From Eledone cirrhosa (lineage: Eukaryota): a DNA stretch of 64,000 nucleotides. Below, one piece after another: positions 3,534 to 49,972 of this stretch. Made by a program: the position numbers and the translations under genes. The notes under the pieces are model-generated. The model searched no databases. It was given only the letters and a program-made list of their open reading frames with translations, and had not been told where the DNA came from. Position 1 is the stretch's first letter; each line of letters opens with the position of its first letter. The stretch spans positions 74,338,001-74,402,000 of the forward strand of contig OZ024742.1 in NCBI GenBank assembly GCA_964016885.1, read 5' to 3'.

Positions 3534-3763
3534 CATGTGAGTTAGAACGTTTATGCGCATTTTCGTATACGTGTCTGTATATATTTTTTATGAACACGTT
3601 CGTTATTCATTAATGGCTTTTTCTTTATTGCATAGTAAATGACATTTTTCTTTATTGCATAATATATAAATAGGGAAAAATAGATATAAAGTAGACCAAA
3701 TATATAAATAGGTAGGTATAGAGACAGACGTAGATACATAGATAAGTACACTGATGTAGAGGG

Positions 3764-7434: not shown

Positions 7435-7475
7435 GTTGGTGCTGAAGAGTTAAAAGGAAGAGGAAAAGAAATTAC

Positions 7476-9120
7476 TTACCTCTTCGTCTCCTGGGGACCA
7501 GGCTACACAATTTCCATGGGGGTGTTGGAAGGGTTGTTTGGTGGTGTGGTGGTTTGTAGTGGGGTGTGGGTGTCTGGGGTGGGGGTGGGGAAACATTTCA
7601 ATAGGACGCGGTTAAATGGTTTGGTGCAGGGGGGCCCCACATCCATTGAATGGTTCTTTTTCAGTGTTATATAGGTATCCATTGGGACCCTAATTATCTT
7701 TAGGTGCGGTTTGCCCGCTGTGTAGGTGAAAGTGATCCTTCGGGTTCCACCGAAGGGTTATTGTCTATTGCTTTCATCAAAGTTTTATTGTTCTTGTTAA
7801 TGTATGTATAGTGTTTTTGTTGTGTTTGTTTTTGTTTGTTGTTCTTGTGTGTGTTTGCGTTTTGTTGTATGTATTTTGTTTTCGGGAAGGGCGGTTCTTG
7901 TTTGGTCTGTTTGTGTTCGTGTTTGTGTGTTTGTTTCGTTTTTGTTCATGTGATGTCTCCTTTTTTTCTTTTCACGGGTTGGAAGGGTTCCCCTTCATCG
8001 CCACTGGGTGACGTTGAAACGGGGTTCTCGTCCGTGTTGTATGGAAGGGGTATATTTTGGGGTTCTGTTGTGACTATGTGTGTTTTTGTATTTGTTTTGG
8101 GTGAGGAGGGTTTGGTGGGACGGTGTTTTGTGTTGTTTTTTCTTGTTGTTTTTGTTGTTGTTGTTGTTGTGGTGGTGGTTGTGTTGTTGTTTGTGGAGTA
8201 GGCAACAGCGCCTTTTTTTTATTTGTCAATTGAGGACAGGCAGCCCTTAGGTGACCTCTGCTTGAGCAGTGGTAACATGCGGGCCGCCTACCCTCAACTG
8301 AGATGTTTATGAATGTCATACCATCCAGGGACACCCTCTGCGGTATTCTAGCGATTCGTTCTGGTCTCATTAGGACCAGAAGCTCCACGCTCGTGCCGCC
8401 GAAAACGACCCCGGTGGCTTCTCCCATTGAAAGGATCTTGTCTTCATCCTCTAAGAATACCGTTAGCACCCACCAAATGCTCGCATTTGGCCGGATTCCT
8501 GAGATTCTAATTTTCTGGGTTCTTTTTCCCAGATATGTAGGGAAAAAGGTGTATAACTTTGATACAATTGGCGACACAGAATATTTCTGGGCCGTCAATT
8601 GATCTTTCATTAAGACCGATATACTCCCATACAGTTTCCCTTTCTGAATGAAAGATATATCAGTCCATGCATTCTTTAGTACCAGATCAATTTCGCTTTG
8701 GGTTAATTGAGCCGGTTTTTTCGTTATGTTCGAAATTGTTCGGAAGGATAAGGTCCTCAGGACCGTCTCTCTTCTAATTTCTTGGAGGGAGGTTATTGTA
8801 AATTCCCCTCCTTCCCCAAAAGTCACATAGTTCCTTGCTTCTTTTAACAATTCTTTTGCATTCAAAATGTCGAGTTGTCTGTAGGTCTGTGTCTCTCGTA
8901 CCGCCTGTGCGAAGGAGACTTCAGTTGTGGGTACGTTTTGTTTGGTCTTGTTGTTGTTATTATTGTTGTTTTCCTTTTTTTTTTTATTGGTGTTTTCCTT
9001 TGCGCTGGTGTTGTTTGTGTTATCGTTGTTGGTGTTGTTGGTTGTGGGGTTCATGCTGTTATTAATTCCATTTGGGTTAGCACCCATTTTTACAAATTTT
9101 TTTATTAATTCCAAGTTCAT
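7476..9120 (-). pseudogene. Tx1-A ORF1 (gag-like, zinc knuckle), disrupted in its 3' part
   Basis: 348-aa ORF 8074-9120 with EGRRPAC-CCHC; terminal QETKR* shared with Tx1-B at 7476. Confidence 0.8.
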
Positions 9121-12400: not shown

Positions 12401-14016
12401 TCTAGTCGATACCTATCGGCCTGTTGGAATTGGCCGATTAAATTTGTAAGACTGTTGTACCCCCCTCTACTAGGACATGCTCCTACATTGTCCCATTGTG
12501 CGTCTCGGATACCATTCCAGTCCCCAACTAAAAGCAAGGAGCGAGACGTTCACAGAAAGACTCTAGACGCTTAAAGAAGTCTGGCCGCGATTGCCCAGTT
12601 GGGGCATAAATGGCTACCAGTCTGAAGGCTCAATCTCCAACACTGTTCGCGTCTTGAACTACCAGTCTACCCTCCTGGTCCAAGTGTACTTGCTGTATTT
12701 CTTGGTCTATGTTTTTTTCCGAAACATGACAGCCACCCCCTCCACCTCCTGGCTGAGAGAGAGATGCGTAGATCTCAAAGTCATTGAAGATGGGGGATCC
12801 TGGACTCGGTGATGACTATCACATCTATACCGTGTGCCTAAGCTCGTTTAAAAGTTGGCGTTTCCAGGGCATCCCTAAGCCACGCACATTCACACTTCCA
12901 ACTCGTAAATTAACCATGCTGGTGGAGAAGAGTTGGCGAAAAAGGACGAAAAGATGCACTTACCTTTTCGTTTCCTGGAGATCGGGTTGTTAAATCTCTA
13001 TTTGGGTGCTGGTGGGGGTGTTGGGTGGGGTGGGGAAACATTTTAATAGGATGCGGTTAATAGGTTTTTGACAGGGATTGACAACGTCCTGCGAAAATTG
13101 TTCTTTTAATTTGTGGTAGGTTTCCATCGAAACCCTTATCAGTTTTAGGTGTGGTTAAGAGTCTGACTTGACAAAAGTTTTCCCCTCAGTTTCTACTTTG
13201 GGGTCTTCGGAGATGACCTCCATTATGTTTTTGTTGTTTGTGTTAATGTATGTGTATTGTTGTTTGTTTTTTTGTTGTGTTGTTTTGGTTTGTTGTTCAT
13301 TTTGTAGTTTTCTTTTTATGGTGGGCATTTGTGTTTGGGGTGGTGTTGGTGTTTGTTTTGCCGTTAGGTGGGGGGGGGGGGAGGGGGAGGGGGGGATTGT
13401 GATGGTGTTTGTATTGTTGTTTGTGTTGGTGGTTGGTGTTTTTATGGCTTTGCGGTGTCTCTCTTTTTTTTTAATTTCCGAGGCTCTCCTTCATCTTCAC
13501 TTGGGGATGGAGAAGTAGCCTCGTCTGACGATGAATCGTTATCAAGGGCGCGTGGGAGGGGTATGCTGTGTGGTGATAGTGTGTTTGTGTGTGTGATGTG
13601 GTAGTGTTGGATGGAGTGGGATGGGGTGGGACTGTGTTTTTCAGGGGAATTGTTTGCGTTTTTTCTATTGTTTGTGGTTGAGCAGTTGTTTGTTTTTGTG
13701 TGTTTGCTTGTTTTGTGTGTTGTTGTTGTGGTTTTGGTGTTGGTGTTGGTAAAAGTACTTTTGGGGGTGGTCGTGGGGGTGGAGGTGTTTGTTCATAAGA
13801 GGGGACAGGAGGCCTTTAAATGCGATGTGCTTGCGCATTTAAAACAATGTGCCCCCCCCCCCCTCCTTCTGCCGAAATGTGTATATAGTTTGTATTGTCT
13901 ACTGGCACTCTTTCTGGTATCTTGGAAATTCTGTCCGGTTTCATTTGGACCAAAATTTCCAAGCTTGTGCCGTTCCAGGTGTTTCTTGTTGATTTTTGAA
14001 TCGACAGTATTGTCAT
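9457..14016 (-). mobile_element. Tx1-B: decayed Tx1 LINE, 5'-truncated within ORF1
   Basis: RT ORF 10452-11495 (LDQSKAFDRVDH, AYADD), APE start MVNLRVGSVNVRGLG at 12917, ORF1 remnant 12960-14016; 3' end abuts (GATA)n. Confidence 0.9.
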
Positions 14017-14398: not shown

Positions 14399-14591
14399 AT
14401 ATCGTAAATATATACTGACACGTATATATCATTTTTGCAGAAAACAAAACAAGAAAAATCATAGCCATGCAAAATGACGTCATAATAAAAAAAACAAATG
14501 TGTGCTACATTTTAATATTTTAAAATTGTAATATCAACAACACATCCATCCATTTGGGTTTTGATTCAATTTTTTTTTTCAAAAGAAACTT

Positions 14592-26000: not shown

Positions 26001-26706
26001 GCCCTCAAAACGAAGTGGGTAAAACACCATATTTACAAGGAGGAGGCTAGCCCACTGTGTAGGGTCTGTGGAGAGAGAGAGGTGACTGGGGCTCACATTG
26101 TATCCGAGTGTAAACACCTGGCCCAGACTCACTATAAAGGCCGGAGACATGATGTGATGGGCAGGGTGATCCACTGGCACCTATGCAAAGTGAACAATTT
26201 ACCACATTCTGAGAAGTGTTATGAGCATTAGCCAGAGTCGGTGATAGAAAACGATTAGGGGAAGGTGCTGTGGGATTTTAGGATACAGACTGACAAGAAA
26301 CTGGAACACAATAGACCTGACCTGGTGGTTTTGGACAAGAAAAAAAAGATCGTGCCTGATTGTAGATGTAGCCTACATTCGACACGAGAGTGCAAGAGAA
26401 GGAGAGGGAGAAAATTAACCGATACCAAGACTTAAAGTGGGAGGTAAAAAGGATTTGGAACTGCCATGAAGTCAAAGTGGTCCCGATTGTCATAGGCGCA
26501 CTAGGTACTATCTCAAAGAGTTTCCAAGAATGGTTAAAGAAAATTAGTGCAGCCCCGCTTTTTGGAACACTTCAAAAGGCATGCTTGCTGGGAACAGCAA
26601 GAACCCTTCGATACGTCCTGAATATCTGAGGCTGCAGGTAGTGGCTTGATATTCATTTCAACAAACTTTCCAGTTAAATAACATCAATGACTGATACTCA
26701 AAGAAC
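23018..26706 (+). mobile_element. Dong-1: decayed R4/Dong-like RLE non-LTR retrotransposon (diverged subfamily)
   Basis: ORF pieces 23250-26629 collinear with intact 49973-53365 (RT FQGDS/FMDD, CCHC, RHD, RPD..EK nuclease); ends in (AAT)n. Confidence 0.9.
23073..23216 (+). CDS. Candidate 47-aa hydrophobic upstream ORF of Dong-1
   Basis: Hand translation MKLMFSFLSFYLFICLFIYVRLQRDSATLKSPGVIKSLEVMKSPVVM*; homologous to 37787-37921 and 49770-49904. Confidence 0.45.
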   Translation: MKLMFSFLSFYLFICLFIYVRLQRDSATLKSPGVIKSLEVMKSPVVM

Positions 26707-26909: not shown

Positions 26910-26953
<44 letters not shown>

Positions 26954-27217
26954 TGATTTCTTTATTAACCACAAGGGTTTACATAAAGTAGACATTAAGG
27001 ACAGTGCAGGACAATGCAGGACGGTACAAATGGGCATTTCTGCGTGTAAAAAAAACAAAAACAGAGGATGTAACAAAAATAACAATGAAAATAACAATGA
27101 AAAATTCCCCAATAGGGGGGAGACTTCGGAGGGACATTTGTGGAGAAAGCCCAGTAAAAAGCCACAATGACCCTGACCACCAAGGCAAGTGCCCTCTCCC
27201 AGTTTTCCACCTTTAGT

Positions 27218-30200
27218 TTACAGATATATACTCAGAGTCGGCCCATTCACTCGGGCCATTCTTGCTTCTCTCACCCATCTTTCAACAAAATGCTGGGAAG
27301 AGAGCACTTCCTTCTCTACTCTGATTTTCCTTTTCAAATGAAATTTGAAAAAGTCAATCAGAGCATCACCGAAGAGGTAAGTGCTCGTCTTCAGCCCTTT
27401 CAAACGTGTCCACCATACTATCTCTTTCGCCATGGCCACCAGACAGATAAAAACTGCCTGCCCTTCCCGGCTAAAGGAGGAGGGCGGGGCAATCCTCACG
27501 ATAGACTCAGATGATAGCTGGATCCGTCCTAAACGCGACAGCAGGTGTTCGACATAAACCCACAAGTCAGCAATTTTCGGACACTGGACGAGTGCGTGCA
27601 GGACGGTTTCGTCGCCCTGCGCGCATCTCGGACATGCCCGGCTGACGGCACCTCCATGCCTGTAGAGTTTATCCCGAACTGGCAAGGCTCCTCGGTAGCA
27701 CTGCCAGGCCAGAGATTTCTGGAAGTTGTCCATAGGCCCCGGCCCGAAAGTTCTTCCGAAGAGATTGGCTAGTTGATTTTCGTCGACGCCTAGAGTTTCC
27801 CCAAGTACGTCGTCGCTCTTCCCCTCCACTAATCCTCTATAGAACGCCGAGGTGGAGTTTCCACCGATCACATTGCCCGATTGGTCGAGGGCTGTGAGCG
27901 CCTGAAGACATTCCAGTCTCCAGGCGCTCCCTCTCGGTCTTCGCTTGACCCAGGACTGCAGCTCCGTCAAGGAAACGAGTTGGGGAAAAACGCGTCTAGC
28001 AAACGGCGACCACACCTGATCACCGTCGAGGAAGAGGTGGAGATGTCGTAGCCTGAGCGCGTGCCTGCGCATCATCAGCCACGGCATGCCCAGCCCTCCA
28101 CGTAGCGGGTGTTGACAACAGATGGACCGCCTGACCATCGGAGCACGTCCCTTCCACAAAAAGCGAAAGAGCAAACGCTCCAGCGCAGTCAGGCGAGGCT
28201 TAGGACAAGGTACGACGGTTAGGCGGTAGCAGATGACAGACGCGATGTACGCGTTAGCCACCTCCGCTCGACCTTTCAGGGATAGCTTCCTCTCCGCCCA
28301 TTTCTGGGTGAGAGAAGCCACCCTGCTCGTCACCTCGTCCCAGTTTTTGTCCATCTGGAGGTCCGGACCGAACCAGACCCCTAGCAATTTAACCGGTCCG
28401 TCCGTCCAGCGCCCGACGACGCTGTTGGACGGCATGGACCTGCCTCTCCAGGTGCCGAGCTGCAGGCCCACTGACTTTTCCTGGTTGATCATTGCTCCTG
28501 TCACCGCTTCGTATTCTCTTAGTGTAGTGCCGATCGCCTCGATGTGTTTGGCGTTCGACACCACTACGGTGACATCGTCCGCATATGCTGACACGGATCT
28601 TCCGCATCCTAGTTCGCGCGGGACTCCCCTCAACGTCTCCAGTTTGTGCAGTAATGGCTCGAGAGTCAATACGTACAAGAGGGACGAGAGGGGACATCCT
28701 TGGCGGACCGAGCGCATGATGTTGAACGGTTCCGACAGGTGACCGTTCACTCTCACCACAGAGCAGATGTCGCTGTGCATGGCAGCGATCCAGCCTCTGA
28801 AGACGGGCCCAAAGCCAGCCGCCCTCAGGACTGCCGCTAGGTAACGATGGTCGACCCTATCGAAAGCTTTCGACTGATCTAAATTGATCAAGGACCCACC
28901 CGTGCCAGGTTCCCTAGCTACCCTCTCTACGATGTATCGCATGAGGTGGAGGTTGTCGTGGATGGATCTGTCGGGAATGGCGCATGTCTGCGCCTCTCCC
29001 ACCAGACCACCAACGACAAGCGCCAACCTCTTTGCTAGCACCTTGGCCAAAATCTTAAACTCTGTGTTTAGCAGAGTTATGGGCCGGAAATTGTCTATGT
29101 TATCCCCCTTGTTCGGATCCTTTCTCAGCAGTGCCACCGCTCCTCGGCTCACAGAACTGGGAATTCTCCCGTTCTGTTGCCAGTTGCAGTAGACGTCCGC
29201 CAAGAGGCCTCCGAACAAGTCTGGCATCTGTACGTAAAGTTCATAGGGCAGACCATCCAAACCAGGCGATTTACCCCTTGTGCAGCCAGTCATTGCCTCC
29301 CGTACTTCAGCGGCTGTTATCGGCTTTTCGCAACACTTCGCCTCAGTGGCCGAGAGCCGCGGCAGTCCGTCGAGGTAGACACTAAAGTCCATCCCTCTAC
29401 CCGGCCCCCCGCTGCCCCCGAACAGCTGAGCGAAGTGTCGCTGAAAAGCTTCACACATTTGCCCGGGATCGAGTAGCATGCGCCCGTCGTGGTCCACCAA
29501 AGACCGGATCGTGGCTTTGTTGCCACGACGCGCCTCCGCCACTCGGGCCCATTGAACGGCTTTCGTCCCCTCGTGTCTGAGAGCACGCACCCTAGCTCTG
29601 ACAACGCAGCCTTCGTGCTTTGCATTGAAGAATTGGTCAAGGGCCAATTTCGCCGCAAGCACGTCGGTCGCAATGCCTTTGCTAAGCGCCTCGTCTAATT
29701 TTCTAACTAGTTCTCCCTCTGCTCTATTTTTCTCTATTGCTAAAGCCTTACTAAACCTAATCGATTCTATTCTAATCGCTCTTTTCAGAGCAAACCACCA
29801 CTTGTTGTTGACGATGGCCCCCGTCAACGCCCGCTTAACTAGTTCGCTAATCCGGTCTCTGTAGGCCTTGCGCGCTGGTAAGGACGCGTTTAGCTTCCAG
29901 TAGCCGGGTCCTCGTCTATGAAGCCTATCTAAGTCAAGCACACAGATCACGAATTTGTGGTCCGTGTAGCTGACTATCTTGAATTGTGGACAGCCTATGC
30001 TAGACCTATCTATTTCCCTACAAAATACTCTATCTAGATATGATTTGGATGACCCTATGCGGTTTGTCCAAGTCCACATTGGCACATTCGGGAAATCCAA
30101 TCGGTACCTGTCAGACAGTTCAAAACGCCTGAGCAGGTTGGTGAGGCTCTTGCACCCTCCACCCCTATCCGCTAATCCCACACAGTCCCAGCGTGCATCT

Positions 30201-30637
30201 AAGATCCCGTTCCAGTCGCCCACTAACACTAAAGAGCGGGACGTTCCAAGAAAGGTCTCCAGACGCCGGAAGAAATCAGGCCGCCCTGCTCCTGTCGGGG
30301 CATAGACGGCCACTAGCCTGAAAGCTTGCCCGTCTCCGCTGGTCACGTCCAGCACCACCAGCTTACCCTCTGGGTCCAGGAAGATGGCCCGTATGGCGAG
30401 ATCCAAACCTCTCCGAAAAAGCACAGCAACTCCTCCACCGGATCCAGGACGGCTGGGAGATGCGTACACATCGAAGCCGCCGAAGATCGGTGCGAAGGCC
30501 CGTGCTTCGGAGATTCTGGTCTCGCTGATGGCCACTACATCTATGTTTAGTGACCTGAGGTCGTTGAGCAGGTGACCCTGCTTCCATGACGACCCCAAGC
30601 CACGCGCATTTATGCTGCCTATTCTGAGTGAGGTCAT
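27218..30637 (-). CDS. Tx1-D ORF2: APE endonuclease, reverse transcriptase, C-terminal zinc motif
   Basis: 1139 aa; SINARGL, ISET, VYAP, GDWN, SYLDR, TDH (APE); KSPGLDGLP, KAFDRVDH, VRQGCPLS, AYADD; CPRC..ETVLHALVQC. Confidence 0.95.
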   Translation of the reverse strand: MTSLRIGSINARGLGSSWKQGHLLNDLRSLNIDVVAISETRISEARAFAPIFGGFDVYASPSRPGSGGGVAVLFRRGLDLAIRAIFLDPEGKLVVLDVTSGDGQAFRLVAVYAPTGAGRPDFFRRLETFLGTSRSLVLVGDWNGILDARWDCVGLADRGGGCKSLTNLLRRFELSDRYRLDFPNVPMWTWTNRIGSSKSYLDRVFCREIDRSSIGCPQFKIVSYTDHKFVICVLDLDRLHRRGPGYWKLNASLPARKAYRDRISELVKRALTGAIVNNKWWFALKRAIRIESIRFSKALAIEKNRAEGELVRKLDEALSKGIATDVLAAKLALDQFFNAKHEGCVVRARVRALRHEGTKAVQWARVAEARRGNKATIRSLVDHDGRMLLDPGQMCEAFQRHFAQLFGGSGGPGRGMDFSVYLDGLPRLSATEAKCCEKPITAAEVREAMTGCTRGKSPGLDGLPYELYVQMPDLFGGLLADVYCNWQQNGRIPSSVSRGAVALLRKDPNKGDNIDNFRPITLLNTEFKILAKVLAKRLALVVGGLVGEAQTCAIPDRSIHDNLHLMRYIVERVAREPGTGGSLINLDQSKAFDRVDHRYLAAVLRAAGFGPVFRGWIAAMHSDICSVVRVNGHLSEPFNIMRSVRQGCPLSSLLYVLTLEPLLHKLETLRGVPRELGCGRSVSAYADDVTVVVSNAKHIEAIGTTLREYEAVTGAMINQEKSVGLQLGTWRGRSMPSNSVVGRWTDGPVKLLGVWFGPDLQMDKNWDEVTSRVASLTQKWAERKLSLKGRAEVANAYIASVICYRLTVVPCPKPRLTALERLLFRFLWKGRAPMVRRSICCQHPLRGGLGMPWLMMRRHALRLRHLHLFLDGDQVWSPFARRVFPQLVSLTELQSWVKRRPRGSAWRLECLQALTALDQSGNVIGGNSTSAFYRGLVEGKSDDVLGETLGVDENQLANLFGRTFGPGPMDNFQKSLAWQCYRGALPVRDKLYRHGGAVSRACPRCAQGDETVLHALVQCPKIADLWVYVEHLLSRLGRIQLSSESIVRIAPPSSFSREGQAVFICLVAMAKEIVWWTRLKGLKTSTYLFGDALIDFFKFHLKRKIRVEKEVLSSQHFVERWVREARMARVNGPTLSIYL

Positions 30638-30672
30638 GTTTAAAATAGAGTGGAAAAGATGGGAAAGACCAC

Positions 30673-32802
30673 TTACCGTACTTTTGGTAGAGGAGGGATG
30701 GTTTTTACATCCCTTTTCACTTGATCGTCTGGTGAAGGGACCGTTGAATCGTCCCTTCGGCTGGTCGTCGGCTCTTCTAAGAGAATGTCTGAGTATACTC
30801 TTCGATTGATGGTTCCTCCTAGGTCCCTGAAATCACCAACTGCGTTGGGGAATTTCGTTTTAATATTTGTGTATTGTTTCTGTGCTATTTTTAGCAGTCT
30901 TATGTTAGTTGGCGTTTTGATTGGTGCTGGTATTATGTAGTCCTGTTGTGAAATGTCTGTGTGTTCAATTATGTAAGTCATTAGTTTCTTGTTGTGTGTA
31001 TTTATTGCCGTGCATTTGTTTTTCTGGGGGTGGGGTGTGGTTCTGCTATTTTCTTGTCGTTGTTGCTGGGTGTGTGTGTTTTGTTGTTGTGTTTGCGATG
31101 TTGGTGCTTGTGGTGGTGGTGTTGAAGGTGTTGTTGGCGGTGGGGTTGTCGCCGGTGGTGATGGTGGCGCTAGTGTGGGTGGTGATGGTGTTGGTGTTGT
31201 TGCTGCTGTGGGTCTCTTTGCAGTAGACTTTACCCTTTTCTCATTTCTTTCCTCACTTTTCAAAGGCGACGATGCGCTGCTTCTGCGTTTGTGCCTTCTT
31301 ACGACCTTTTGCCATCTCTCTCCCACCTCACACTCCATGTCTGATTCTGTGAGGTCGGGGAGGGGTACCAACTCCACTCTTTCACTTGTTGTTGTTGGTG
31401 ATGTTTGCACTGGAGTCTCTGTTGCAGCTGCATTTGGTATTGCTGTTGTTGTTGTTAGTATTTCCACTGCTGCTGCTGTTTTTGATTTCCGTGGAGTGGG
31501 TATGGGTGCCACGGGCCTATCGTTCCTGGTTGCCGCTTGTCCTGTTGCTGGTAGCCGTGGAGCCGGATTCGGAAGGAGGGGGGTTTTCTCCTTTCTCAGG
31601 GTCTTCTCGTTGCAGAAGGCCCTGAGGTGAGTCTTCGATCCACAGCGAAAGCATTTCGGGCGTTTGCCCTCAACACTTATGGGCAGTTGAGTGCCGTTAT
31701 CGAAGTCTATCACATCCGGGATAGCTTCGATGCACTCCTGGTTGGTTTGGATTAGCATCTCAATGGAGGAGCCGACCCAATCTTCTCTTACTTTTTTCTG
31801 TACTTGCAGTACAGTTGTTTTGTCCTCGATTCCGACGAGGACAGACGCGGCCAGCCAAGAAGGGGTCATTCCGGGGGGGACGTGGGTCAGTTTGACCCTC
31901 ACAATTTTTTGCCCACAGTAGGAGGGCACCAACACCATTTCCTCGCTCCTTAGGGTCACTACTGATTGGGCCTTTGCCTCCTGGGGTGTGGCAAAAAGTA
32001 CGTCTACGGTGGCATATTTTTTGCCTCGGGTGATGTGCGTTTTCCGCTGCCACACAGACCCCAAGGCTTTTTGTATTTGGGCCTCTGTGGCTCTTTCCAC
32101 CCTACGGGATTTTGTACTTACTGTACGGTACGTGACCGTACAGTGCTCTTGGGTTTCGAAAAAATTTTTCGCTGCCTTGCAGATTGCTCGGTGTCCGTTC
32201 TTTGTCACCATCTTCTTCGCTTCCTCTAATTCCTCATTTGTTATGAGGATTGTTTCCAAATTTTTCGCAATACCTGCAAATGAGATTGGTTTTTCTCTGC
32301 TGTTGTTGTTGTCGTCAGAGCTGCTGGTACTTTTGTTGTTGCTGCAGGTACTACGACTACTGCCTCCGCCGCTGTTGCTGTGGTTGTTGTTGGTGTTGCT
32401 GCTGCTAATGCTGTTGTTGTTTATGCTGCTGGTGATGCTGTTGCGGCTGCTACTGTTGTTTTCATTGTCACTGTTGCTGTTGTTATTACGGCTGCTACTG
32501 CTATTATTCCTGACGTCAGACGAATGAACTGGGTTTTCGTATTTCCCGCACACCTGTTTCGTCGCTGTCGTCGTCGTCGTGGAGAAACCTTGCACGCTTT
32601 GCACGAGACTTTTCTTTTCTTTCGTCACTTGCGAAAGAGAAGGGAGGGAGAGAGACACATTTAAAGAAGGGAGGGAGAGAGACAATCTTCTCTCTGCTGT
32701 AGTGATGATTGAGGAAGAAGAAGACGGAATGAGTGGGAGTGACGTATGAAATTTCTTTTTGGTAGCCATGTTTTTTTGTTTAAAATGAAATTTTGGGTAC
32801 AA
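30673..32802 (-). CDS. Tx1-D ORF1: nucleic-acid-binding protein with CCHC knuckle and low-complexity N/S and P/T regions
   Basis: 709-aa ORF; EGKRPKCFRCGSKTHLRAFC; true start may be the second Met (MATKKKF). Confidence 0.9.
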   Translation of the reverse strand: MYPKFHFKQKNMATKKKFHTSLPLIPSSSSSIITTAERRLSLSLPSLNVSLSLPSLSQVTKEKKSLVQSVQGFSTTTTTATKQVCGKYENPVHSSDVRNNSSSSRNNNSNSDNENNSSSRNSITSSINNNSISSSNTNNNHSNSGGGSSRSTCSNNKSTSSSDDNNNSREKPISFAGIAKNLETILITNEELEEAKKMVTKNGHRAICKAAKNFFETQEHCTVTYRTVSTKSRRVERATEAQIQKALGSVWQRKTHITRGKKYATVDVLFATPQEAKAQSVVTLRSEEMVLVPSYCGQKIVRVKLTHVPPGMTPSWLAASVLVGIEDKTTVLQVQKKVREDWVGSSIEMLIQTNQECIEAIPDVIDFDNGTQLPISVEGKRPKCFRCGSKTHLRAFCNEKTLRKEKTPLLPNPAPRLPATGQAATRNDRPVAPIPTPRKSKTAAAVEILTTTTAIPNAAATETPVQTSPTTTSERVELVPLPDLTESDMECEVGERWQKVVRRHKRRSSASSPLKSEERNEKRVKSTAKRPTAATTPTPSPPTLAPPSPPATTPPPTTPSTPPPQAPTSQTQQQNTHTQQQRQENSRTTPHPQKNKCTAINTHNKKLMTYIIEHTDISQQDYIIPAPIKTPTNIRLLKIAQKQYTNIKTKFPNAVGDFRDLGGTINRRVYSDILLEEPTTSRRDDSTVPSPDDQVKRDVKTIPPLPKVR

Positions 32803-33005
32803 AACCCCAATAACTGGTTATTTAACCCCGAAGGGCCAAATAACGGACAGAAAGACCCCTCTCACGAGGAGGAGGGTGTCTTTATCAACAATTTGGTTCA
32901 AGTTTTAAACAATTTACAATTGTTTTAACGGTTAAAAATTACTATACCTTACAGAGCCGAGCCTCCGTCAACCATGGCATTCAATAATAATAATAATAAT
33001 GATGA

Positions 33006-36000
33006 TTTCTTTATTGGCCACAAGGGCTGACATCAAGAAAAACATTACAGACGGCACAGGACGGTACAGGTCGGTACGATGTGGGTTTTGTGCGTGTAAA
33101 GATTTTTATTATTTATATAAGAAAAATGGTGGTGGATTGGCAGTATCGGTAGAGGGTCGGACGCTATGCTTTGACGCATAGAGTTACGGCCCTTGCCATT
33201 CTGAGTTCAAATCCCGCCGAGGTTAACTTTGCCTTTCATCCTTACGGGGTTGATAAAATAAAGTACCAGCAATGCACTGGGTAATTGCTAGCCTTGTGCC
33301 AAAAGTAGAAACAATTATTTATATAAGAAAAGAAAAAGAAAAAGACATAGAAACATATATATATATATATATATAAACAATAAAAATGAAAATTCAAACA
33401 ATGAAAAATTCCCCAATAGGGGGAAACCTCCGAGGATTACTCGTGGCGAAAACCACACAAAAGACAACGGCCACCCTGACCACCAGGGCAAGCGCCCTCT
33501 CTCAATTTTTCCATTTCTCAAACTACAGGCGTATATTCAGAGCGGTCTCGTTCACTCAGACCATTCTCGCTACATTCACCCACCTTTCAACAACTTGCTA
33601 GAAGGCAGCACTTGCCTCTCCACCCTGATTTTCCTCTTCAAGTGAAACTTGAAAAAGTTAATCAGGGATTCGCCGAAGAGGAATGTGTCTGTCTTTAACC
33701 CTTTCAACCTTGTCCACCACACAATCTCTTTCGCCATGGCCACCAGGCAGATGAAAACCGCCTGCCCTTCCTCCTCGAAGGAAGACGGCGAGACATCTGC
33801 ACAATGGACTCAGTCGATAAGCGGATCAGTCCCACAGACGACAGCAACTGTTCGACATAGCTCCACAAGTCAGCAATGCTCGGGCACTGAACGAGTGAGT
33901 GCGTGCACGACGATTTCGTCGCTCTGCGCGCATCTCGCACAGTCTCGGCTGACGGCAGTTCGGTGCTTGTAGGGCTTATCTCGAACCGGCAACGCTCCCC
34001 GATAGCACTGCCAGGCAGGGATTTTTGGAAGTTATCCATAGGCCCTGGGCTGAAAGTTCTCCGGAAGAGAGCAAACAGCTGATCTTCTTCGACGCCCAGG
34101 ATCTCTACAAGAACGTCGTCGCTCTTCCCTTCCACTAGTCCTCTATAGAACGCCGAGGTGGATGTTCCACCGATACTGGTGCCCAGCTGGCAGAGAGCGG
34201 TGAGCGCCTGGAGACATTCCAGTTTCCAAGTGCTATCCCTCGGTCTTTTCCTGACCCAAGACTGCAGCTCAGTCAAGGAGACGAGCTGTGGGAAAACGTC
34301 CCTGGCGAAGGGCGACCACACCTGTTCACCGTCAAGGAAGCGCCAGAGATATCGCAGGCTCAGCGCATGTTTGCGCATCATCAACCATGGCATGCCCAGT
34401 CCTCCACGCAACGGGTGTTGACAGCAGATGGATCGTCTGACCATGGGAGCGCGTCCCTGCCACAAAAAGCGGAAGAGGAGGCGCTCCATTTTGGTGAGAG
34501 TTGGGTCACGCGGTAGCAGATGACGGACGCTATGTACGCATTCGCCACTTCCGCCCGGACTTTCAGGGACAGCTTCCTCTCGGCCGATTTCTGTGTGATG
34601 GAGGCCACCCTGCTCATCACCTCGCTCCAGTTTTTCTCCATCTGGAGGTCCGGTCCGAACCAGACACCGAGCAATTTAACCGGTCCGTCCGTCCAACGCC
34701 CCACGACGCTGTCGGACGGCATGGACTTGCCTCTCCAGGTGCCGAGCTGCAAGCCCACCGCCTTTTGTTGGTTAACTTTGCTCCTGTCACCGCTTCGTAT
34801 TCCTTGAGAGCGGTGTCGAGCATCTGGACGTATTTGGTGCTCGAGACCACCACAGTGACGTCATCGGTGTAAGCCGACTCGGATTTCCCGCATCCTAATT
34901 CGCGTGGGACGCCCCTCATCGACCCCAGTTTGAGAGCCAATACACACAAGAGTGACGAGAGGGGACAACCGTGGCGGACCGAGCGCATGATGCTGAACGG
35001 TTACGACAGGTGACCGTTCACCCTCACAACTGAGCAGATGTCGCTGTACATCGCAGCGATCCAACCCCTGAAAATGGGCCCGAAACCGGCTGTCTCGAGG
35101 ACCGCCGCCAGGTATCGATGGTCGACCCTATCGAATGCTTTGGATTGATCCAAGTTGATCAGGGCCCCACCCGTGCCAGGTTCCTTAACCACCCTCTCTA
35201 CGATGTATCGCATGAGGTGGAGGTTGTCGTGTATGGATCTGTCCGGAATGGCGCATGTCTGCGCCTCTTCCACCAGACCCTCGACGACAAGCGCCAACCT
35301 CGGTGCTAACACCTTGGCCAAAATCTTGAACTCTGCGTTTAGCAGGATTATGGGCCTGAAATGATCGATAACATCTCCGTTGTTCGGGTCTTTTCTCAGC
35401 AGCGCCACCGCTCCCCGTCTCACAAAACTGGGAATGCTCCCGTCCTGCTGCCAGTTGGAGTAGACGTCTGCCAAGAGTTCACCAAACAAGTCTGGCATAA
35501 ATGCATAAAGCTCGAAGGGCAGACCATCCAAACCTGGCGATTTACCCCTCGTGCAGTTAGCCATCGCTTCCCGTATTTCACCGGCTGTTATTGGCTTTTC
35601 GCAACACTGTGCTGCGGTTGTCGAGAGCCGAGGCAGTCCATCGAGGTATGCACTGAAGTCCATACCCCGATCCGGCCAGCCGCTGCTCCCAAACAGTTCA
35701 GCAAAGTGCTGCTGAAAAGCCTCACGTCTGCTCGGGTTCGAGCAACACGCGCCTGTTTTGGTCAGACAAAGACCGAATTGTGGACTTGTTGCCACGTCGC
35801 GCCTCTGCCACCCGGGCCCATTGGACGGATTTTGTCCCCTCGTGTTCCAGAACACGCGCTCTAGCTCTGACAGCACAGCCTTCGTGTTTTGCGTTGAAGA
35901 ATTGGTCGAGTGCCAATCTCGCCGCAAGATCGTCGGTTGCGACCTGTCCTAAACGCCTCTTCTAGCTTTCTGACTAGCTCTCCTTCTACTCTATTTTCCA

Positions 36001-36869
36001 CTATCACTAGTCCTTTGCTAAACCTAATCGACTCTACTTTAATTGCCCTTTTCAAGGCGAACAACCACTTGTTGTTGACGACCGCTCCCGTCAACGCCCG
36101 CTTAACTAATACGCTAATCCGATCTCTGTAGGCTTTGCGAGCCGAGAAAGACGCGTTCAGCTTCCAGTGACCGGGTCCTTGTCTATGAAGTCTGTCTATG
36201 TCAATCTCACAGATCACATATTTGTGGTCTGAGTAGTCGACTATTTTAAATTGTGGACTACTTATACTAGCCTTATCTAGTTCTCTGCAGAATACCCTAT
36301 CGAGATACGATCTGGATGACCCGATGCGGTTTGTCCATGTCCACATTGGCACATTCGGGTAATCCAGTCGATACCTGTCAAACAGTTCAAAACGTCTGAG
36401 CAGGTTGGTGAGGCTCTTGCACCCTCCTCCCCTATCCACTATCTCCACACAATCCCAGCGTGCATCCAAGATACCGTTCCAGTCGCCCACTAACACTAAA
36501 GAGCGAGACGTTCCAAGAAAGGTCTCTAGACGTCTGAAGAAATCTGGCCGTCCTAGCCTTCGCTGCTGGCCATGTCCAGCACCACCGACTTACCTTCTGG
36601 GTCCAGGAAGATGGCGAGATCCAAGCCTCTCCGAACCCCTCCCCCCGATCGTGGACGGCTGGGAGATGTGAATACATCGTAGCCGCCGAAGATCGGTGCG
36701 AAGGCTCGTACTTCGGAGATTCTTGTCTCGCTGATGGCCATCACATCTATGTTTAGTGACCTGAGGTCGTTGAGCAGGTGGCCCTGCTTCCAAGATGACC
36801 CAAGGTCACTGCATTTATACTGGCTATTCTAAGTACGGCCATGTAGGATGAGAAACGGGGTAAGTGAGA

Positions 36870-36870
<1 letters not shown>
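33006..36870 (-). mobile_element. Tx1-E: decayed Tx1 subfamily, truncated just upstream of the ORF2 start
   Basis: ORF2 pieces from MAVLRIASINA (36842) to the 3'UTR; (AAT)n on both sides. Confidence 0.9.
33126..33313 (+). mobile_element. SINE inserted in the Tx1-E 3'UTR with 18-bp TSD
   Basis: attatttatataagaaaa at 33108-33125 and 33314-33331; A/B boxes on plus. Confidence 0.88.
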
Positions 36871-36921: not shown

Positions 36922-39900
36922 TAAGGGAAGAAGACGCACGAGGTGACGGAGGTCATGAAATCGCTCCCGTAAGTTTTGAATTTTTAACATATTTAAACCA
37001 TTTGTGAAATAACAACTCTTAGCACAAATGCTACGTAAAGCACCCGGCTTGAGCCCCAAAAAATTCGGACCCAAAATATATTGTTATAAGGCTCAAATAT
37101 TCAAATATTCAACTTTGTATTGTACACTGTATATCCCCCCCCCAAAATGGCTATAAATGGAAGAAGAACCCCTCCCCTCCTCTCCTCTGGCTACACTATA
37201 TAGGACAGCTAAACTCACCAACACCAGAAACTAGATACACCACCCACCCCATCATCTGTGTACACTAAACACAACAGCCAGATAACGACACATTTTCACC
37301 TTCACCGCCACCGCTCACTACGGCCATCATTGCCACCACTATCCCATCACCGCCGCCACCACCCCTTGACTCCGCTACAGCACCATCACTACAGTGATAC
37401 GGTCACATCACCGCCACCACTGCCTCGGTATCGACATCACCACCACCACTGTCTCAGTATCGCTAACGCCGCCAGTCTCCCACTTCCCTGCTGGCTGCTA
37501 CTTCCACATTATAGAATTCCTACTACTAACAAAGAGGAAGGCATCAAAATATATAGATAGACCCAAAAGAAAAAAGAAAAAACAAACAACAAAACCAAAG
37601 CAGCACAGCAACAACAGCAAAAAAACGAGAAAAACAAACAGAGAAAAACAAAAACAAAAAAAAAGAAACCCCAAAAACGTAAAGAAAATAAGAATGAAGA
37701 GAGAAGCAGGCGGACGGACAAAGAGGGGGGAAAAAGTAAAACTTAAAAAACTAAAACTAAGTCAGACATTCGAACACTACATTACAATGAAACTTATGCT
37801 TATTCATTTCTGGGGCCCTTTCTGCCTGTGTGTTTGTTTGTTTATGTGTGTTCGTATACAGCGTGGTGATAATGCCACACAAGGGCCAAGTGGGATGGCG
37901 GATCCACAGATGGCTATGTAAACATACATTCGCCAATCCTCGATAAGAGTGTTTAAATATCGAACATAAACAGTTCGAATAACGGTGAAATGGAGACTAG
38001 AACGTCATGTGACAGACTCTCACCCAACAGGTGCCCCCTGGCTCAGCAGCAGGAACCTGACTGTCAACCAAATACTGCTGATGTTGGAGGAAGGAGAAGA
38101 AGGAAAGGGGCCAGAACCAACTGGACGAAAGAATTGAATAGAACTGTTATGCAATGCTACCTGAAAAGTAACCCCAAGGAGAGGGGCTACAGGAGACGGA
38201 TGCATAACATCTGGAACGAGATTGGTTTATTTAAATTAGATGAACAAAAATTGGCCGGGCAGGCTCGGGTAATAAGAACTAATGGGTGGATAAGCGAGCT
38301 GGAACTGGAGGAACTGAGCAGAGAGAATGGCTTGGAGATGGCGGGTGTAGTATGCCAGACAAGCGAGCCGGTGGGAAATGAAGGTGAGGAGGTCCTGAGA
38401 ACGGAGGAACCACCCGAAGCAGACAATGATCTGAGTACTGAGATAAATAATACCTGGAACAGAGATACGGCCACTGAGGAGATGAATGCTGACGGGCTAG
38501 GACAAGATTCGGTTGACATCCTAAATTTAGTGGTAGATGAATTGAACAATGATAGTGGGAGACCTATGAACCTAAGATTTGTAGACAGGAAAAAGTTAAA
38601 AGAAACAACAGCTAAGGTAAACAAAGTCACCCCATACCTTGAGGCGAGGAGCCTTCACCAGTGCAACAATATCCTCAGAGCAACAGCAAATTCGGTGAGG
38701 AAACTACTTGGTATAAAAGCGAGAGGAAACAACAGACAAGAAAGAGCAGAGCCGTGGTGGAAGAAGCGACTGAGTGGGCAAATCGGGGAAATGAGAAATG
38801 ACATAGGAAAGCTTGAGTCACTACTGAATGGGACACTAAAAAACATAGGCACTAAAAATAGACTGGAAATAGACTAAAAATAGACTGGAAATAAAATACA
38901 AAACTAGTAAAAAGCTAAATATTATCATAGAGGAATTGAAGCAACGCATTGTAGCAAAGAGTGCAAAAATCAGGCGATACGAGAACAGAGTCAGTCAGTA
39001 TAAACAGAACCGCATGTTCGACAACAACCAGAACATGCTGTTTGGACAGCTTGAGGGCAAAGAAAGAGGCAACGACTTGATCCCTGGGGCGGAGCAAACT
39101 AAAACATTCTGGAGAGGAATATGGGAGCAGGATGTTAGACACAATGACCAGGCAGGGTGGATTGAGACAGTACAGAGGGAGATCGGTTAGCAGGCACAGC
39201 AACAGACTGATTTGAGTATCACAGTTGAAACTCTTAAGGGACAAGCCAAAAAACTAACCAACTGGAAATCACCAGGCCCAGATGGTGTGCAGGGGTATTG
39301 GATTAAACATCTAACATCCCTCCACCCGAAGCTGACGGCCATGTTCAATGACTGCTTGGTGTCGGGTGAGGTGCCAGAGTGGTTGACAAAAGGTACCACA
39401 GTTCTGATAATGAAAGACCGAATCAAGGGTAATGATGCTACCAACTATAGACCTATCACATGTCTGCCCGTAATGTGGAAACTGTTGACGAGCATTGTGT
39501 CTGAGGAAATCTACCATCACCTCCACACAAACAACTTGTTACCGGACGAACAGAAAGGATGCCGAAAGAAGTCACGTGGTACAAAGGACCAGTTGCTTAT
39601 TGATAAGATGGTAATGGGGAATTGCAGGAGGAGACACACTGATCTTGCCATGGGATGGATAGACTACAGAAAGGCATTTGACATGGTGCCTCATTCCTGG
39701 ATCACCAAAAGCCTGGAGATCTTCAGGGTGGCGGATAACATCAGACAGTTGCTAGGCAGGAGTATGGGGTCCTGGGAGACAGAGTTGACATCAACTGGAG
39801 TATCCTTGGGAAGCGTGAAGATCAAGAGAGGTATCTTCCAGGGAGATAGCCTGTCCCCTCTGTTGTTTGTCCTTGCCCTGATGCCCTTGACCATTATGCT

Positions 39901-41510
39901 GCGAAAAGTGAGAGCAGGATACAAGTTGGGAAGGGGAGAGCTTACCATCAATCACCTCCTCTTCATGGACGATCTTAAGCTCTTCGGGAAAAGTGAGAAG
40001 GAGTTGGATGTGCTTGTTGACACTGTCCGTATTTTCAGCAGTGATATATGTATGCAGTTTGGTATTGGTAAATGTGGAGTCATTATGATGAAGAGGGGTA
40101 GGTTGAGCAGAAGTAACGGGATCCAGATACCAACAGGTGAGATGATAAAGGAAATTGACTCTGAGGAAGGATACAAGTATTTGGGCGTTCTGGAGGCTGA
40201 TGGCATAAAGAACAAAAAAATGAAGGAATTGTTAAGAACTGAATACATTCGGAGAGTAAGGAGCGTATTGAAGTCACATCTGAACAGCAGAAATGCCATA
40301 AGCGCAGTAAATTCCCGAGCTGTGTCTATTATTAGGTACAGTGCTGGAATTCTGAGATGGAATGTTGCTGAACAGAAAGAAATGGATAGGAAGACTAGGA
40401 AGCTATTGACTATCTACAACATGTTCCACAAGAGGAGTGATGTCGATAGACTCTACCTAAGGAGATCTGAGGGTGGAAGAGGTCTTATCAGCATAGAGGA
40501 CTGTGTTCAGATGGAGAAAAACAACCTATACAAATACGTGACCTATAGTAAGGAGCCAATGCTCAGAGTTGTACTGAAGGAGGGGACAGTAGGCCAGGGG
40601 ATGTCCAGGGAGGAAATAACATCAAGGAGGAAGAGCAGCCTTAAGGGAAAACCCCTTCATAGTACCTTCTTTGAGAAAACTGAATTTAGAGATCCACAGA
40701 CATGGAACTGGTTGAGAAGAGGAGACCTCAAAAAGGCTACAGAAGGAATGCTAATGGCTGCGCAGGAGCAGGCCCTCAAAACGAAGTGGTTGAAGCACCA
40801 TATCTACAAGGAGGAGGCCAGCCCACTGTGCAGGATCTGTGGAGAGAGAGAGGAGACTGTGGCTCACATTGTGTCCGAGTGTAAACACCTAGCCCAGACC
40901 CACTATAAGGGCTGGAGACACGATGTGATGGGCAGGGTGATCCACTGGCACCTGTGCAAAGTAAACAATCTACCACATTCTGAGAAATGGTATGAGCATA
41001 GGCCAGAGGCGGTGATGGAGAACAATCAGGTGAAGGTGCTGTGGGATTTTAGGATACAGACGGACAAAAAACTGGAACACAATAGACCTGACCTGGTGGT
41101 TGTGGACAAAGAAAAAAGATCGTGCCTGATTGTGGATGTGGCCTGCCCGTTCGACACGAGAGTGCAAGAGAAGGAGAGGGAGAAAATTAACCGATACCAG
41201 GACCTAAAGTGGGAGGTGAAAAGGATTTGGAACTGCCATGAAGTCAAAGTGATCCCGATTGTCATAGGCGCACTGGGGACTATCTCCCAAAGTTTCCAGG
41301 GATGGTTAAAGAAAATCGGCCCCTTCACGCTTTTTGGAACGCTTCAAAAGGCATGCTTGCTTGGAACAGCAAGAACCCTCCGATACGTCCTGAATATCTG
41401 AGGCTGCAGGTAGTGGCTTGATATTCAATCCAACGGACTTTCCAGTTAACCAACATCAATGACTGAGATTCAAGGAATAACAATAACAATAATAATAATA
41501 ATAATAATAA
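36921..41510 (+). mobile_element. Dong-2: full-length R4/Dong-like element, ORF disrupted
   Basis: ~1.07-kb 5' region, ORF 37990-41401 broken by a short tandem duplication (~38857-38893) and a stop near 39188; near-identical to Dong-4; (AAT)n on both sides. Confidence 0.93.
37787..37921 (+). CDS. Candidate 44-aa hydrophobic upstream ORF of Dong-2
   Basis: MKLMLIHFWGPFCLCVCLFMCVRIQRGDNATQGPSGMADPQMAM*, the 3' part of ORF 37394-37921. Confidence 0.45.
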   Translation: MKLMLIHFWGPFCLCVCLFMCVRIQRGDNATQGPSGMADPQMAM

Positions 41511-45600: not shown

Positions 45601-48539
45601 GCCGGGTCCTCGTCTATGAAGCCTATCTAAGTCAAGCACACAGATCACGAATTTGTGGTCCGTGTAGCTGACTATCTTGAATTGTGGACAGCCTATGCTA
45701 GACCTATCTATTTCCCTACAAAATACTCTATCTAGATATGATCTGGATGACCGTATGCGATTTGTCCAAGTCCACATTGGTACATTCGGGAAATCCATTC
45801 GGTACCTGTCAGACAGTTCAAAACGTCTGAGCAGGTTGGTGAGACTCTTGCACCCTCCTTCCCTATCCACTAATCCCACACAATCCCAGCGTGCATCTAA
45901 GATCCCGTTCCAGTCGCCCACTAACACTAAAGAGCGGGACGTTCCAAGAAAGGTCTCCAGACGCCGGAAGAAATCAGGCTGCCCTGCTCCTGTCGGGGCA
46001 TAGACGGCCACTAACCTGAAAGATTGGCCGTCTCCGCTAGTCACGTCCAGCGCCACCAACTTACCTTCTGGGTCCAGGAAGATGGCCCGCATGGCAAGAT
46101 CCAAACCTCTCCGAAAAAGCACAGCAACTCCTCCCCCCGATCCCGGACGGCTGGGAGATGCGTACACATCGTAGCCGCCGAAGATCGGTGCGAAAGCCTG
46201 TGCTTCGGAGATTCTGGTCTCGCTGATGGCCACTACATCTATGTTTAGTGACCTGAGGTCGTTGAGCAGGTGGCCCTGCTTCCATGACGACCCCAAGCCA
46301 CGCGCATTTATGCTGCCTATTCTGAGTGAGGTCATGTTGAAAAGGAGTGGAAAAGATGGGAAAGACCACTTACCTTACTTCTCGTAGGGGAAGGACGGTT
46401 TTTCCATCCTTTTCACTGCTTGTGGCCTCCTCAGGAAGGATGTCCTTATAAATCCTCCTGAAGAGTGCTTGTCGGAAGTCTCCGATGTCTTTGGGGAATT
46501 TTTGTTTTAGTGTCATGTACGTTTTCTGTGTGATGCGAGTGATTTGTATGTGTGGAGGTGGTGTGAAATTTGGGGTTGTTGTGTAGTCTTTTTCTGTGAT
46601 GCTGGTGTTGTGTTGGATGTAGTGTAATAATTGCTTGTTGTTCAAATTTAATGCTGTGTAGTGTGTATCGTTTTGGTTGTTTTGTTTTGTTTGCGTTTGT
46701 TGTGGGTTTGTTTCTGTTTCGCATTTTGGTGACTTTTGTGGTGTAGGTGATGGTGGTGTTGGGGTTAATGATGGTGATGGTGTTGGTGTTTGGGTTGATG
46801 GGGTTGGTGATGCTTGTGTGGATGGTGGCATATCTGTCCTAACTTTTTTGTTTCTTAATTTATTTGTTTCCCTCTGTATTTTGTTTTTGGAGGGGGAAGG
46901 AAGAGAATTTTTTCTTTTTTGGTTTCTTTTTTTTTTTCCTGATATCGTTTCCCACTCCTCGTCGTCACAATCTGTCTCCAGTTGTGATAGGCCGGGGAGT
47001 GGCAAATCCTCCACAGCCGTTAGTTTTGGTTGTGGCGTGGTGGATGGTGTAGGCGCTGGTGCTAGTTCTGAAGCGTTGGGTGGTGGTGGTGTTGGTTTTG
47101 CTGGTGGTGGTGGTGGTGTTGGTTTTGCTACTGTTGCTGGGGTTGTTGCTGTTATAGTTGCTTCTGTTGTTGCTGCTACAGTTGTTGCTGCCATCTCTGC
47201 TACTGGTGGTGTTGATGGTTGTGTCACTGGGGTGAGTAGGAGAGGTGGCCTCAACCTTTTAGCCTGAGGGCAGAAAGCCCTTAGGTGGGTTCCTTCACCA
47301 CAAACGACACACCTAGGTCTTCTGCCCTCGACAATTACCGTGAGGTGGCTGCCGTCAGTGAGGTCTATTACCTCTGGGATCTCCTCAATGCTTTTTTGGT
47401 CCGCTTGGATCAGGAGCTCCATCCCAGATCCGGACCAGTTCTCCTGCTTTTCTTTTGCTATTGCTATTATTTTCGTGTTGGCTTCGATGCCGGCGAGGAC
47501 AGCCGCTATTAGCCAGGGAATTTCGATGGCCGGTGGAACGTGGCTCACCCTGATCTTTACGAGTCTCTGGCCACAATAGCTTGGGACGACTGTGAAGTCG
47601 TCACTTCTTAATGGGACCATGGAGTGTTCTCTAGCCTCCTCTGGTGTTTCAAAGAACACGTCCACGGTTCCATACTTTTGACCACGTCTGATGTGGGTTT
47701 TTCTTGCCCACAAATGTCCCAAAGCTTTTTGGATTTGGGACTCGGATGCCCGTTCCACTCGGCGCGATTTTACATTTATTGTTCTATACGACACGGTGCA
47801 CAGGCGCCGATGCTCCATTTTATTAGGGGGGGGGGGTGAGGCTGACCCTGTACCCATCTTTCTTTACCATTTGTTTGGCATTTTCTAAATCCTCCTGAGT
47901 TACCGTAAATGCTTCGAACTGTTTTGCTACTCTGGCGAAACTGAGGGGGGTTTTTATAATGTCATTGTTGTTGTTGTTGCTATCGTTAATATTAATTTTA
48001 GTTTCAGTTGTGGTGGTGGTGACGTCAGTCGTCTTTGGTGGGGAAGAGTTCATTTTGCTTGATTTCATTTCGACATCACGAGTTAATTTATTTTTTTCTT
48101 CTTTTGTTTCTGTTGTCGCGGTGGTGGTGGTGGTGGAGGCTTTAACACCTGCAGTCATTGGTAATGGCGGGAAATGAATGTCTGCCTGAGACAAATTTAA
48201 AATATTGCTACTGCTTATACTTTTTGTAGTGTTGGCAAACGTAGTAACATTTACAATGGTGGTGTCGGTGTGAGGTGTTAATTTGTGAGAAAGGCTTTCA
48301 GCTGCTTCGTGCAGAGGTGAATTAGCCATTTTTTTTTCAAAGAAATTTTTTGATAATAATAAAAGTTAAAATTTGGGGCACAAGGCCCCAATCTTTTTGG
48401 GTGTCCTTTTCGGAAAACAATGTATGTGCGCTTATATATGGTTAACAATAAAAATGTTCCATAAATGGCAATTTTTAACAAACGGAAATAACAAACCTTT
48501 GCGGAGCTCACGATGATACGATTTACTACGTAGGTCGCC

Positions 48540-49904: not shown

Positions 49905-49972
49905 ACATACATTCGCCAATCCTCGATAAGAGTGTTTAAATATCGAACATAAACAGTTCGAATAACGGTGAA

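Follow-up and report, generated by a model that had tools for sequence, protein, structure and literature searches.

The stretch of the Eledone cirrhosa genome studied here (64,000 nucleotides of contig OZ024742.1, positions 74,338,001 to 74,402,000 of the forward strand; hereafter the window, numbered from its first letter) carries several copies of a long interspersed nuclear element (LINE) with two open reading frames (ORFs), among them the minus-strand copies labelled A, B, D, E and F. At the junction of ORF1 and ORF2, a sequence resembling a 5' splice site, or donor, lies across the ORF1 stop codon, and a sequence-only reading of this DNA had proposed that it opens a micro-intron whose removal would fuse ORF1 in frame to ORF2. 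Comparison of these junctions across lineages indicates that the donor is conserved as an RNA element and that the frame of the proposed acceptor is not; tentatively, we regard the donor as a binding site for U1 that is left unspliced and that a strand in the 3' untranslated region (UTR) would mask. The features concerned are the following.

26925..33006, minus strand: LINE copy D, full-length, young, Tx1-type, about 6.08 kb, between (ATT)n repeats
30673..32817, minus strand: ORF1 of D, an open frame of 714 codons from stop to stop, with a region like an RNA recognition motif (RRM), a CCHC knuckle and a low-complexity tail
30671..30679, minus strand: donor motif of D, a U1-type 5' splice site (-3 to +6) across the ORF1 stop, the best of the 317 GT sites in D, with 8 of 9 consensus positions
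30641..30670, minus strand: pyrimidine tract of D, the 5' arm of a predicted long-range helix
27218..30637, minus strand: ORF2 of D from its own AUG, 1,139 amino acids (aa), with APE endonuclease, reverse transcriptase (RT) and zf-RVT domains
30623..30625, minus strand: Arg5 codon of D ORF2, whose first two bases are the proposed acceptor
27184..27210, minus strand: purine-rich head of the D 3' UTR ending in a U1-like strand, the predicted 3' arm of the helix, covering the donor
27040..27119, minus strand: 3' UTR hairpin (27119-27106) and U-rich tract ending in CAG at 27040, an AG found only in D, F and G
7442..7482, minus strand: junction of copy A, with donor, tract and CAG upstream of the ORF2 AUG (7434), the best intron-like case (28-40 nt within its lineage)
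12919..12966, minus strand: junction of copy B, with the AUG at 12917 and a CAG that is a minority variant of the AUG context
46322..46376, minus strand: junction of copy F, with the AUG at 46335 inside the proposed intron and the 3' arm at 42909-42883
36829..36870, minus strand: copy E, 5'-truncated, with tract, AUG and the AG of Arg5 kept and the donor lost through truncation

Copy D is 99.6% identical across 6,082 nt to the unit of a tandem array, and its junction region is 100% identical in 40 of the 40 scored matches. The array unit measures 6,057 nt, with every copy set behind the (ATT)n tail of the one before (seen at C1:179621001-179641000); among the fetched copies, which do not amount to a genome-wide count, those of D, E, F and C sit in (ATT)n and form head-to-tail arrays. 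The motif at the start of ORF2 has 8,483 matches in the 3.0-Gb genome. ORF2 matches the Pfam domains PF03372, PF00078 and PF13966, its closest solved structure is that of human L1 ORF2p (E 3e-52, against 1e-21 for R2), and its nearest named relatives are found in Argonauta hians (73% identity) and Octopus sinensis (62% over 61 aa). No Pfam match was found for ORF1, in which the knuckle motif is readable in the sequence; its Atlas feature neighbours, the zf-CCHC and ZCCHC3 RNA-binding clusters (0.89-0.93), serve as a lead. The domains of ORF2, the RRM-like and CCHC-bearing ORF1 and the target preference together point to a LINE of the L1/Tx1 type, the clade name Tx1 being the label given by the sequence-only reading. 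In all lineages the 3' UTR has a common small hairpin, a U-rich stretch and an end motif with a poly(A) signal (27119-26960, minus strand, in D), and this shared tail is likely the one recognised by the RT. Several lineages (loci L160, L163, L166 and L167) also have a possible donor in the 5' UTR, a GTAAG(T) about 30-40 nt in from the 5' end.

The literal description of the junctions was accurate. At all four sites with a donor (A, B, D and F), G|GTAAGT spans the ORF1 stop, and it is followed by an AG-free tract of 73-86% pyrimidine and a first CAG at 38, 45, 53 and 52 nt, respectively, each in phase 2. These four junctions are not independent cases: the ORF2s of D and F are 97% identical, and the window copies of A and B have upstream stops within ORF1.

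The donor itself was compared across lineages. In the representatives of seven lineages (7/7), among the columns from -30 to +30 only positions -1 to +4 and +6 (G|GTRA.T) are invariant; as a neutral control, 26-28% of the four-fold sites of ORF2 are invariant. We further sorted 138 distinct fetched junctions by lineage, excluding 30 loci that had been selected for a changed +2 base, and the donor is present in 125 of them. Relative to ORF1 it stands in phase 2 in A, B, D/F, G and H, in phase 1 in E and most of C, and in phase 0 in 14 of 100 C rows. The phase is secure in D, F, A and E, each with at least one copy open from the knuckle to the donor; in B, C, G and H it was assigned by local homology, no fetched C copy being open over that distance. 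Since the donor occurs in all three phases of ORF1, it is not a by-product of coding or of the stop codon. Its variation follows the splice consensus, with only A or G at +3 and a free +7. On these sequence comparisons, the donor is conserved beyond chance and is to be regarded as a selected RNA element. Within ORF2, about 310 nt from its start, D, F, E, C and G have another donor-like site (30366, 46064 and 36593 in the window, minus strand), and in a gene model of Octopus sinensis the LINE-derived stretch ends at the same residue as this site.

The acceptor gave a different result: of the two properties expected of junctions across lineages, donor conservation was borne out and a constant acceptor phase was not. 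Donor and first AG share a frame in 28 of 29 junctions of A, 32 of 33 of D/F, 6 of 6 of H and 16 of 16 of C3 (where the distance is only 28-32 nt), whereas they share it in none of 9 in E, 8 of 24 in B, none of 3 in C4/5 and 1 of 2 in G. In lineage E the donor is in phase 1, as read from a copy (L111) open from the zinc knuckle to the donor, so that all nine junctions are out of frame; the truncated copy E, cited in support of the fusion, does retain the tract and the AG, but its lineage speaks against the frame. Lineage C has 1,090 junctions genome-wide, and among the first 100 rows 86 have the phase-1 donor and are out of frame; they include a young subfamily of 29 identical rows in which a phase-1 donor precedes a phase-2 CAG. 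The CAG of the window copy of B is shared by only 4 of 24 distinct donor-bearing B junctions, and in 14 of the 24 the first AG belongs to a phase-1 GAG inside ORF2. The proposed intron of D and F contains the AUG of ORF2 itself (30637 and 46335), and because the first AG there is the Arg5 codon behind that AUG, phase 2 follows automatically. AGR codons are used in at least five of six lineages at 21 of the 39 invariant Arg sites, and the AG of Arg5 is therefore not special. In-frame splicing of a micro-intron is thus not supported, the frame of the acceptor not being conserved.

By contrast, an A-x-x-AUG-R start of ORF2 is retained in every lineage, and full-length ORF2 relatives in the protein database start at the same Met, so ORF2 is likely translated from its own AUG. 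The tract keeps a mean pyrimidine content of 0.79-0.84 in all lineages, and lineage A keeps a strong tract and CAG through spacers of 28-40 nt. Read-through or a fixed frameshift was considered and set aside, as the distance from donor to AUG varies freely between 28 and 52 nt.

Genomic copies lacking exactly the intron, which the sequence-only reading had named as a check, were searched for without success. None was found in D/F against 4,510 intact junctions genome-wide (95% bound 0.07%), the single short match being an imprecise deletion that keeps the donor, and none in A against 647 intact junctions (95% bound 0.46%), a variant with A as the first exon base included. Neither was the end of ORF1 found joined to other sequence as by splicing: 0 of 49 and 0 of 42 deviant rows in D/F and 0 of 35 and 0 of 5 in lineage A. 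Point mutants, small indels and duplications account for the deviant rows, apart from a single microhomology deletion and a single row left unexplained. The deletion (L189), examined as a candidate spliced copy, runs into ORF2 and does not end at an AG. The unexplained row (C12:27057079-27057132) reads an F-type ORF1 end, then GT, then unrelated-looking sequence. Upstream of the acceptor, no foreign sequence recurs in 6 rows of A and 2 of C. These searches covered the donors of D/F and A and the acceptors of A and C3/C4, with the donors of B, E, G and H outside them. As cis preference would lead to the copying of a spliced RNA, the absence of intron-less copies weighs against ORF2 activity from such RNA. 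No protein above 1,250 aa matched the ORF1 domain in a weak search for a fused product, metagenome scans yielded no usable junction and a viral scan nothing. Contigs of the read sets X6, X1, X3 and X5 were compared with the D junction, and those of X6, X3 and X5 with the whole of D; none of the runs is recorded as RNA. Among the joints listed (15 of 31 at the junction, 9 along the whole copy), none corresponds to the micro-intron or to a long splice, and a single contig each from X3 and X5 bridges the junction unspliced. In X6 one D-like copy predominates, bearing letters that are rare in X1, and this set may be RNA, whereas the shallow X3 and X5 may be carry-over. As contigs also lose rare forms, we counted them neither for nor against any reading.

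A scan of genome contigs revealed a related LINE in tandem arrays with a unit of 6,823 nt, evidently host DNA in a bacterial bin. The bin, labelled Arenicella in a genome collection, has many contigs with eukaryotic LINE arrays (L244-L294), evidently through host contamination. Identity over ORF2 is 41% and four-fold identity 0.28, meaning that silent sites are saturated. In the main lineage of this relative, 77 of 77 complete junction places (9 types, some copies perhaps counted twice where loci overlap) show a perfect donor one base past the ORF1 stop, with the AUG 13 nt downstream of it, against a chance of about 0.01 per 70 nt for such a donor. As neither tract nor AG lies between donor and AUG, no fusion intron could form there. 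Only one other such donor site exists in the whole element, past the ORF2 stop: in its 3' UTR (L245 type, about 7480-7530) GTRAGT is followed by a U-rich tract and by YAG 34-40 nt on, the shape of a too-short intron in non-coding sequence. A tract with YAG occurs within about 60 nt past the ORF2 stop in 14 of 15 types of 3' end. In another element of the same host (L281), GTRAGT followed by a U-rich tract was also seen in the 3' UTR, near 3534.

The constancy of the pyrimidine tract has another possible source. We computed the duplex between the donor plus tract and the purine-rich 50 nt past the ORF2 stop, which in D reaches -40.7 kcal/mol, stronger than all 1,143 other segments of the element. 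The corresponding values are -40.3 in F, -45.6 in E, -35.7 in A2, -34.7 in C3, -31.1 in B and -28.0 in A1, each beating every other segment of its own element; in C4, A3, G and a spacer-deleted H copy the duplex is not the strongest. With local folding allowed, the binding gain is -27.1 kcal/mol when the two arms are cognate and -14.2 when they are not, a result as strong in 2 of 5,040 label permutations; in 7 of 8 representatives no piece of ORF2 paired as well. Of the 7 donor positions, 6-7 are predicted to be paired in D, F, E, B, two of three A2-type copies and one G copy, and the GTGAGT variant of A2 lies opposite a matching changed partner. The end of the 3' arm resembles the 5' end of U1. 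Such predicted pairing with the 3' UTR head would explain the tract without recourse to an acceptor. An intramolecular mask formed by a U1-like word near the 3' end of ORF2 was discarded, being confined to D/F.

The reading that we prefer, at somewhat less than an even chance, is that the junction donor is a U1-binding site that is not spliced and that comes with a built-in masking strand, ORF2 being translated from its own AUG. The sequence-only reading had mentioned a U1-binding element in passing, a remark that fits the evidence and now forms part of this explanation. U1 would dock at the end of ORF1 while the 3.5 kb of ORF2 are transcribed and, on the nascent RNA, would guard against premature 3' end formation. 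Once the 3' UTR has been made, its U1-like strand would cover the donor, leaving the RNA unspliced and available for copying. The helix would loop ORF2 out and bring the ORF1 stop near the 3' end; such a loop would limit re-initiation at the AUG of ORF2, through which ORF2 would be made, and could help the RNA to escape nonsense-mediated decay. U1 binding, the helix and the effects on the RNA are all proposed from the sequence and from predicted pairing. It is also possible, although we consider it doubtful, that the site has an off-switch, in which the U1-like strand of the 3' UTR displaces U1 and clamps ORF2 in the loop; this would hold the RNA unspliced, set the ratio of ORF1 to ORF2 and put the ORF1 stop beside the poly(A) tail, with failure of the clamp giving an ORF1-only mRNA.

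Several observations weigh against this preferred explanation. No conserved poly(A) signal that U1 might suppress was found in the elements: upstream AWTAAA sites exist in most copies, yet they are non-homologous and have a 34-65% chance of arising by composition, and D ORF2 has none. A true donor that yields an ORF1-only mRNA would account no less well for the exact position at the end of ORF1. A second lineage in the host of the distant relative (L281) has no donor at its junction, and of three elements further removed (27-30% identical to the query), L290 alone showed a fair junction donor. The helix signal in the distant relative is weak, being clear in 1 of 3 copies; cover of the donor is only partial in A1, C and H, and in G the cognate pair is equalled by 7 of 36 ORF2 pieces. 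Finally, the lineages share history, so that the permutation count overstates their independence.

The main rival, which we judge somewhat unlikely, takes the motif as the true donor of a 3.5-kb intron whose removal excises ORF2 and leaves an ORF1-only mRNA, as in copia elements, only the unspliced RNA being copied. It accounts for a donor that marks the ORF1 end whatever the phase, and that sits immediately past the stop in the distant relative, as ORF1 stays whole in each case; RNA lacking ORF2 would rarely be copied, and the absence of retrocopies, which extends to both joins in D/F and A, therefore weighs little. Candidate acceptors exist: the ORF2 stop is TAG, mostly with G as the next base, in A, B, C, E, G, H and the relative, and a U-tract with CAG lies in the 3' UTR of D, F and G, besides the tract and YAG at the 3' ends of the relative. 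However, none is common to all: D/F ORF2 ends in TAA, and A, B, C, E and H lack the 3' UTR AG. For this reason the 3' UTR CAG was rejected as a general acceptor, as was an acceptor at nt 415 of ORF2, which is kept in six lineages and absent from the distant relative. The predicted helix, moreover, would cover the donor with part of the would-be downstream exon and should inhibit splicing. The unspliced U1 site and the long intron can coexist, by analogy with the plant element EVD discussed below. Less probable, and in our view unlikely, is that the motif is kept for RNA structure or translation, as the end of a helix or a signal for termination and re-initiation, its likeness to U1 being incidental. 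The predicted helix does cover it in several lineages, a donor in the human L1 5' UTR is reported to be kept as a RUNX3 site (PMC5860796), and LINE ORF2 is described as made by termination-reinitiation (PMC5972666). Yet the variation at +3 and +7 tracks the splice consensus, the motif is retained by elements with only partial or weak pairing (A1, C and the relative), and the relative has its second GTRAGT, with tract and YAG, in the 3' UTR.

Splicing of a 28-54 nt micro-intron into an ORF1-ORF2 fusion of use to the element, as first proposed, now appears very improbable. The in-frame first AG of A, D/F, H and C3 and the strong tract and CAG of A would fit it, but E, most of B and 86 of the first 100 C rows are out of frame, G is split one to one, ORF2 has its own AUG everywhere and the relative could not form the intron at all. 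The lack of any precise intron-less copy, despite the expected copying of spliced RNA in cis, and, more weakly, of a long protein matching ORF1 point the same way. Even less credit is due to the possibility that tract and AG serve as acceptor for a donor in the 5' UTR, giving an ORF2-only mRNA: a junction YAG preceding the AUG is the best acceptor-like site after the donor in A, C3/C4 and one G copy, but an AG ahead of the AUG is missing from most B, H, C5, D, E and F, and such an RNA would be copied in cis, yet the A and C rows examined show no recurrent foreign sequence upstream of the acceptor. Neutral carry-over from an ancestor of the lineages is similarly hard to credit. The octopus-type lineages do share ancestry, and similar donor-like words occur within ORF2; conservation far above that of neutral sites, across frames and in a relative saturated at silent sites, largely excludes it.

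The window holds two further features outside these LINEs. On the plus strand, a single open frame of 640 codons at 14565-16487 encodes an ADAMTS cysteine-rich domain (PF17771) and lies in a segment of which the genome sequence C3 has three copies. A second, single-ORF RT family is represented at 37957-41401, 49940-53365 and 23250-26231 (plus strand), the copy at 49940-53365 having an intact frame of 1,141 codons.

A motif and partner strand known to the exact base, in young families that number thousands of copies, make it testable how a bicistronic LINE RNA with 3.5 kb past its first stop escapes decay, remains unspliced and yields far more ORF1p than ORF2p. Among known systems, the Ogre elements have a spliced intron in their polyprotein gene. 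The closest parallel is EVD, a Ty1/copia element of Arabidopsis, in which U1 at the gag donor is reported to prevent premature termination of the unspliced RNA (PMC5580714). The LINE resembles copia elements in having a donor at the end of the structural ORF; EVD, however, is a long terminal repeat (LTR) element with one polyprotein, for which splicing and a subgenomic RNA are described as shown (PMC5580714), whereas the LINE has two ORFs with separate AUGs, no conserved acceptor and no spliced product seen in our searches. In foamy virus, U1 binding is reported to suppress polyadenylation and RNA structure to block access of U1 at the 3' LTR (PMC3694450); that structure is local and stands beside a defined poly(A) site, whereas the helix predicted here spans 3.5 kb and has no conserved poly(A) target.

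Among LINEs, human L1 likewise has conserved splice signals and an unspliced RNA that is copied, and 116 spliced integrated retrotransposed elements (SpIREs) are reported among 6,609 full-length copies, or about 2% (PMC5860796). Its donor, as described there, lies in the 5' UTR and leaves these spliced retrocopies, whereas ours lies at the end of ORF1 and none were found. Kibi and Koshi, of the Tx1 clade, share two ORFs, APE and RT domains and insertion into microsatellites (PMC4494074), and in its available parts that account describes no junction donor or ORF2-enclosing helix. In L1 and SART1, ORF2 is reported to be translated by termination-reinitiation from its own AUG shortly past the ORF1 stop (PMC5972666; PMC3520747); the human L1 spacer is reported to be dispensable, whereas here spacer composition and partner strand are conserved. 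Within the open PMC and bioRxiv literature, as far as its accessible text extends and with Repbase and subscription papers outside that scope, we found no report of a junction donor or an ORF2-enclosing helix in any LINE. Control through U1 is already known from LTR elements and retroviruses, and the element described here would extend it to a LINE.

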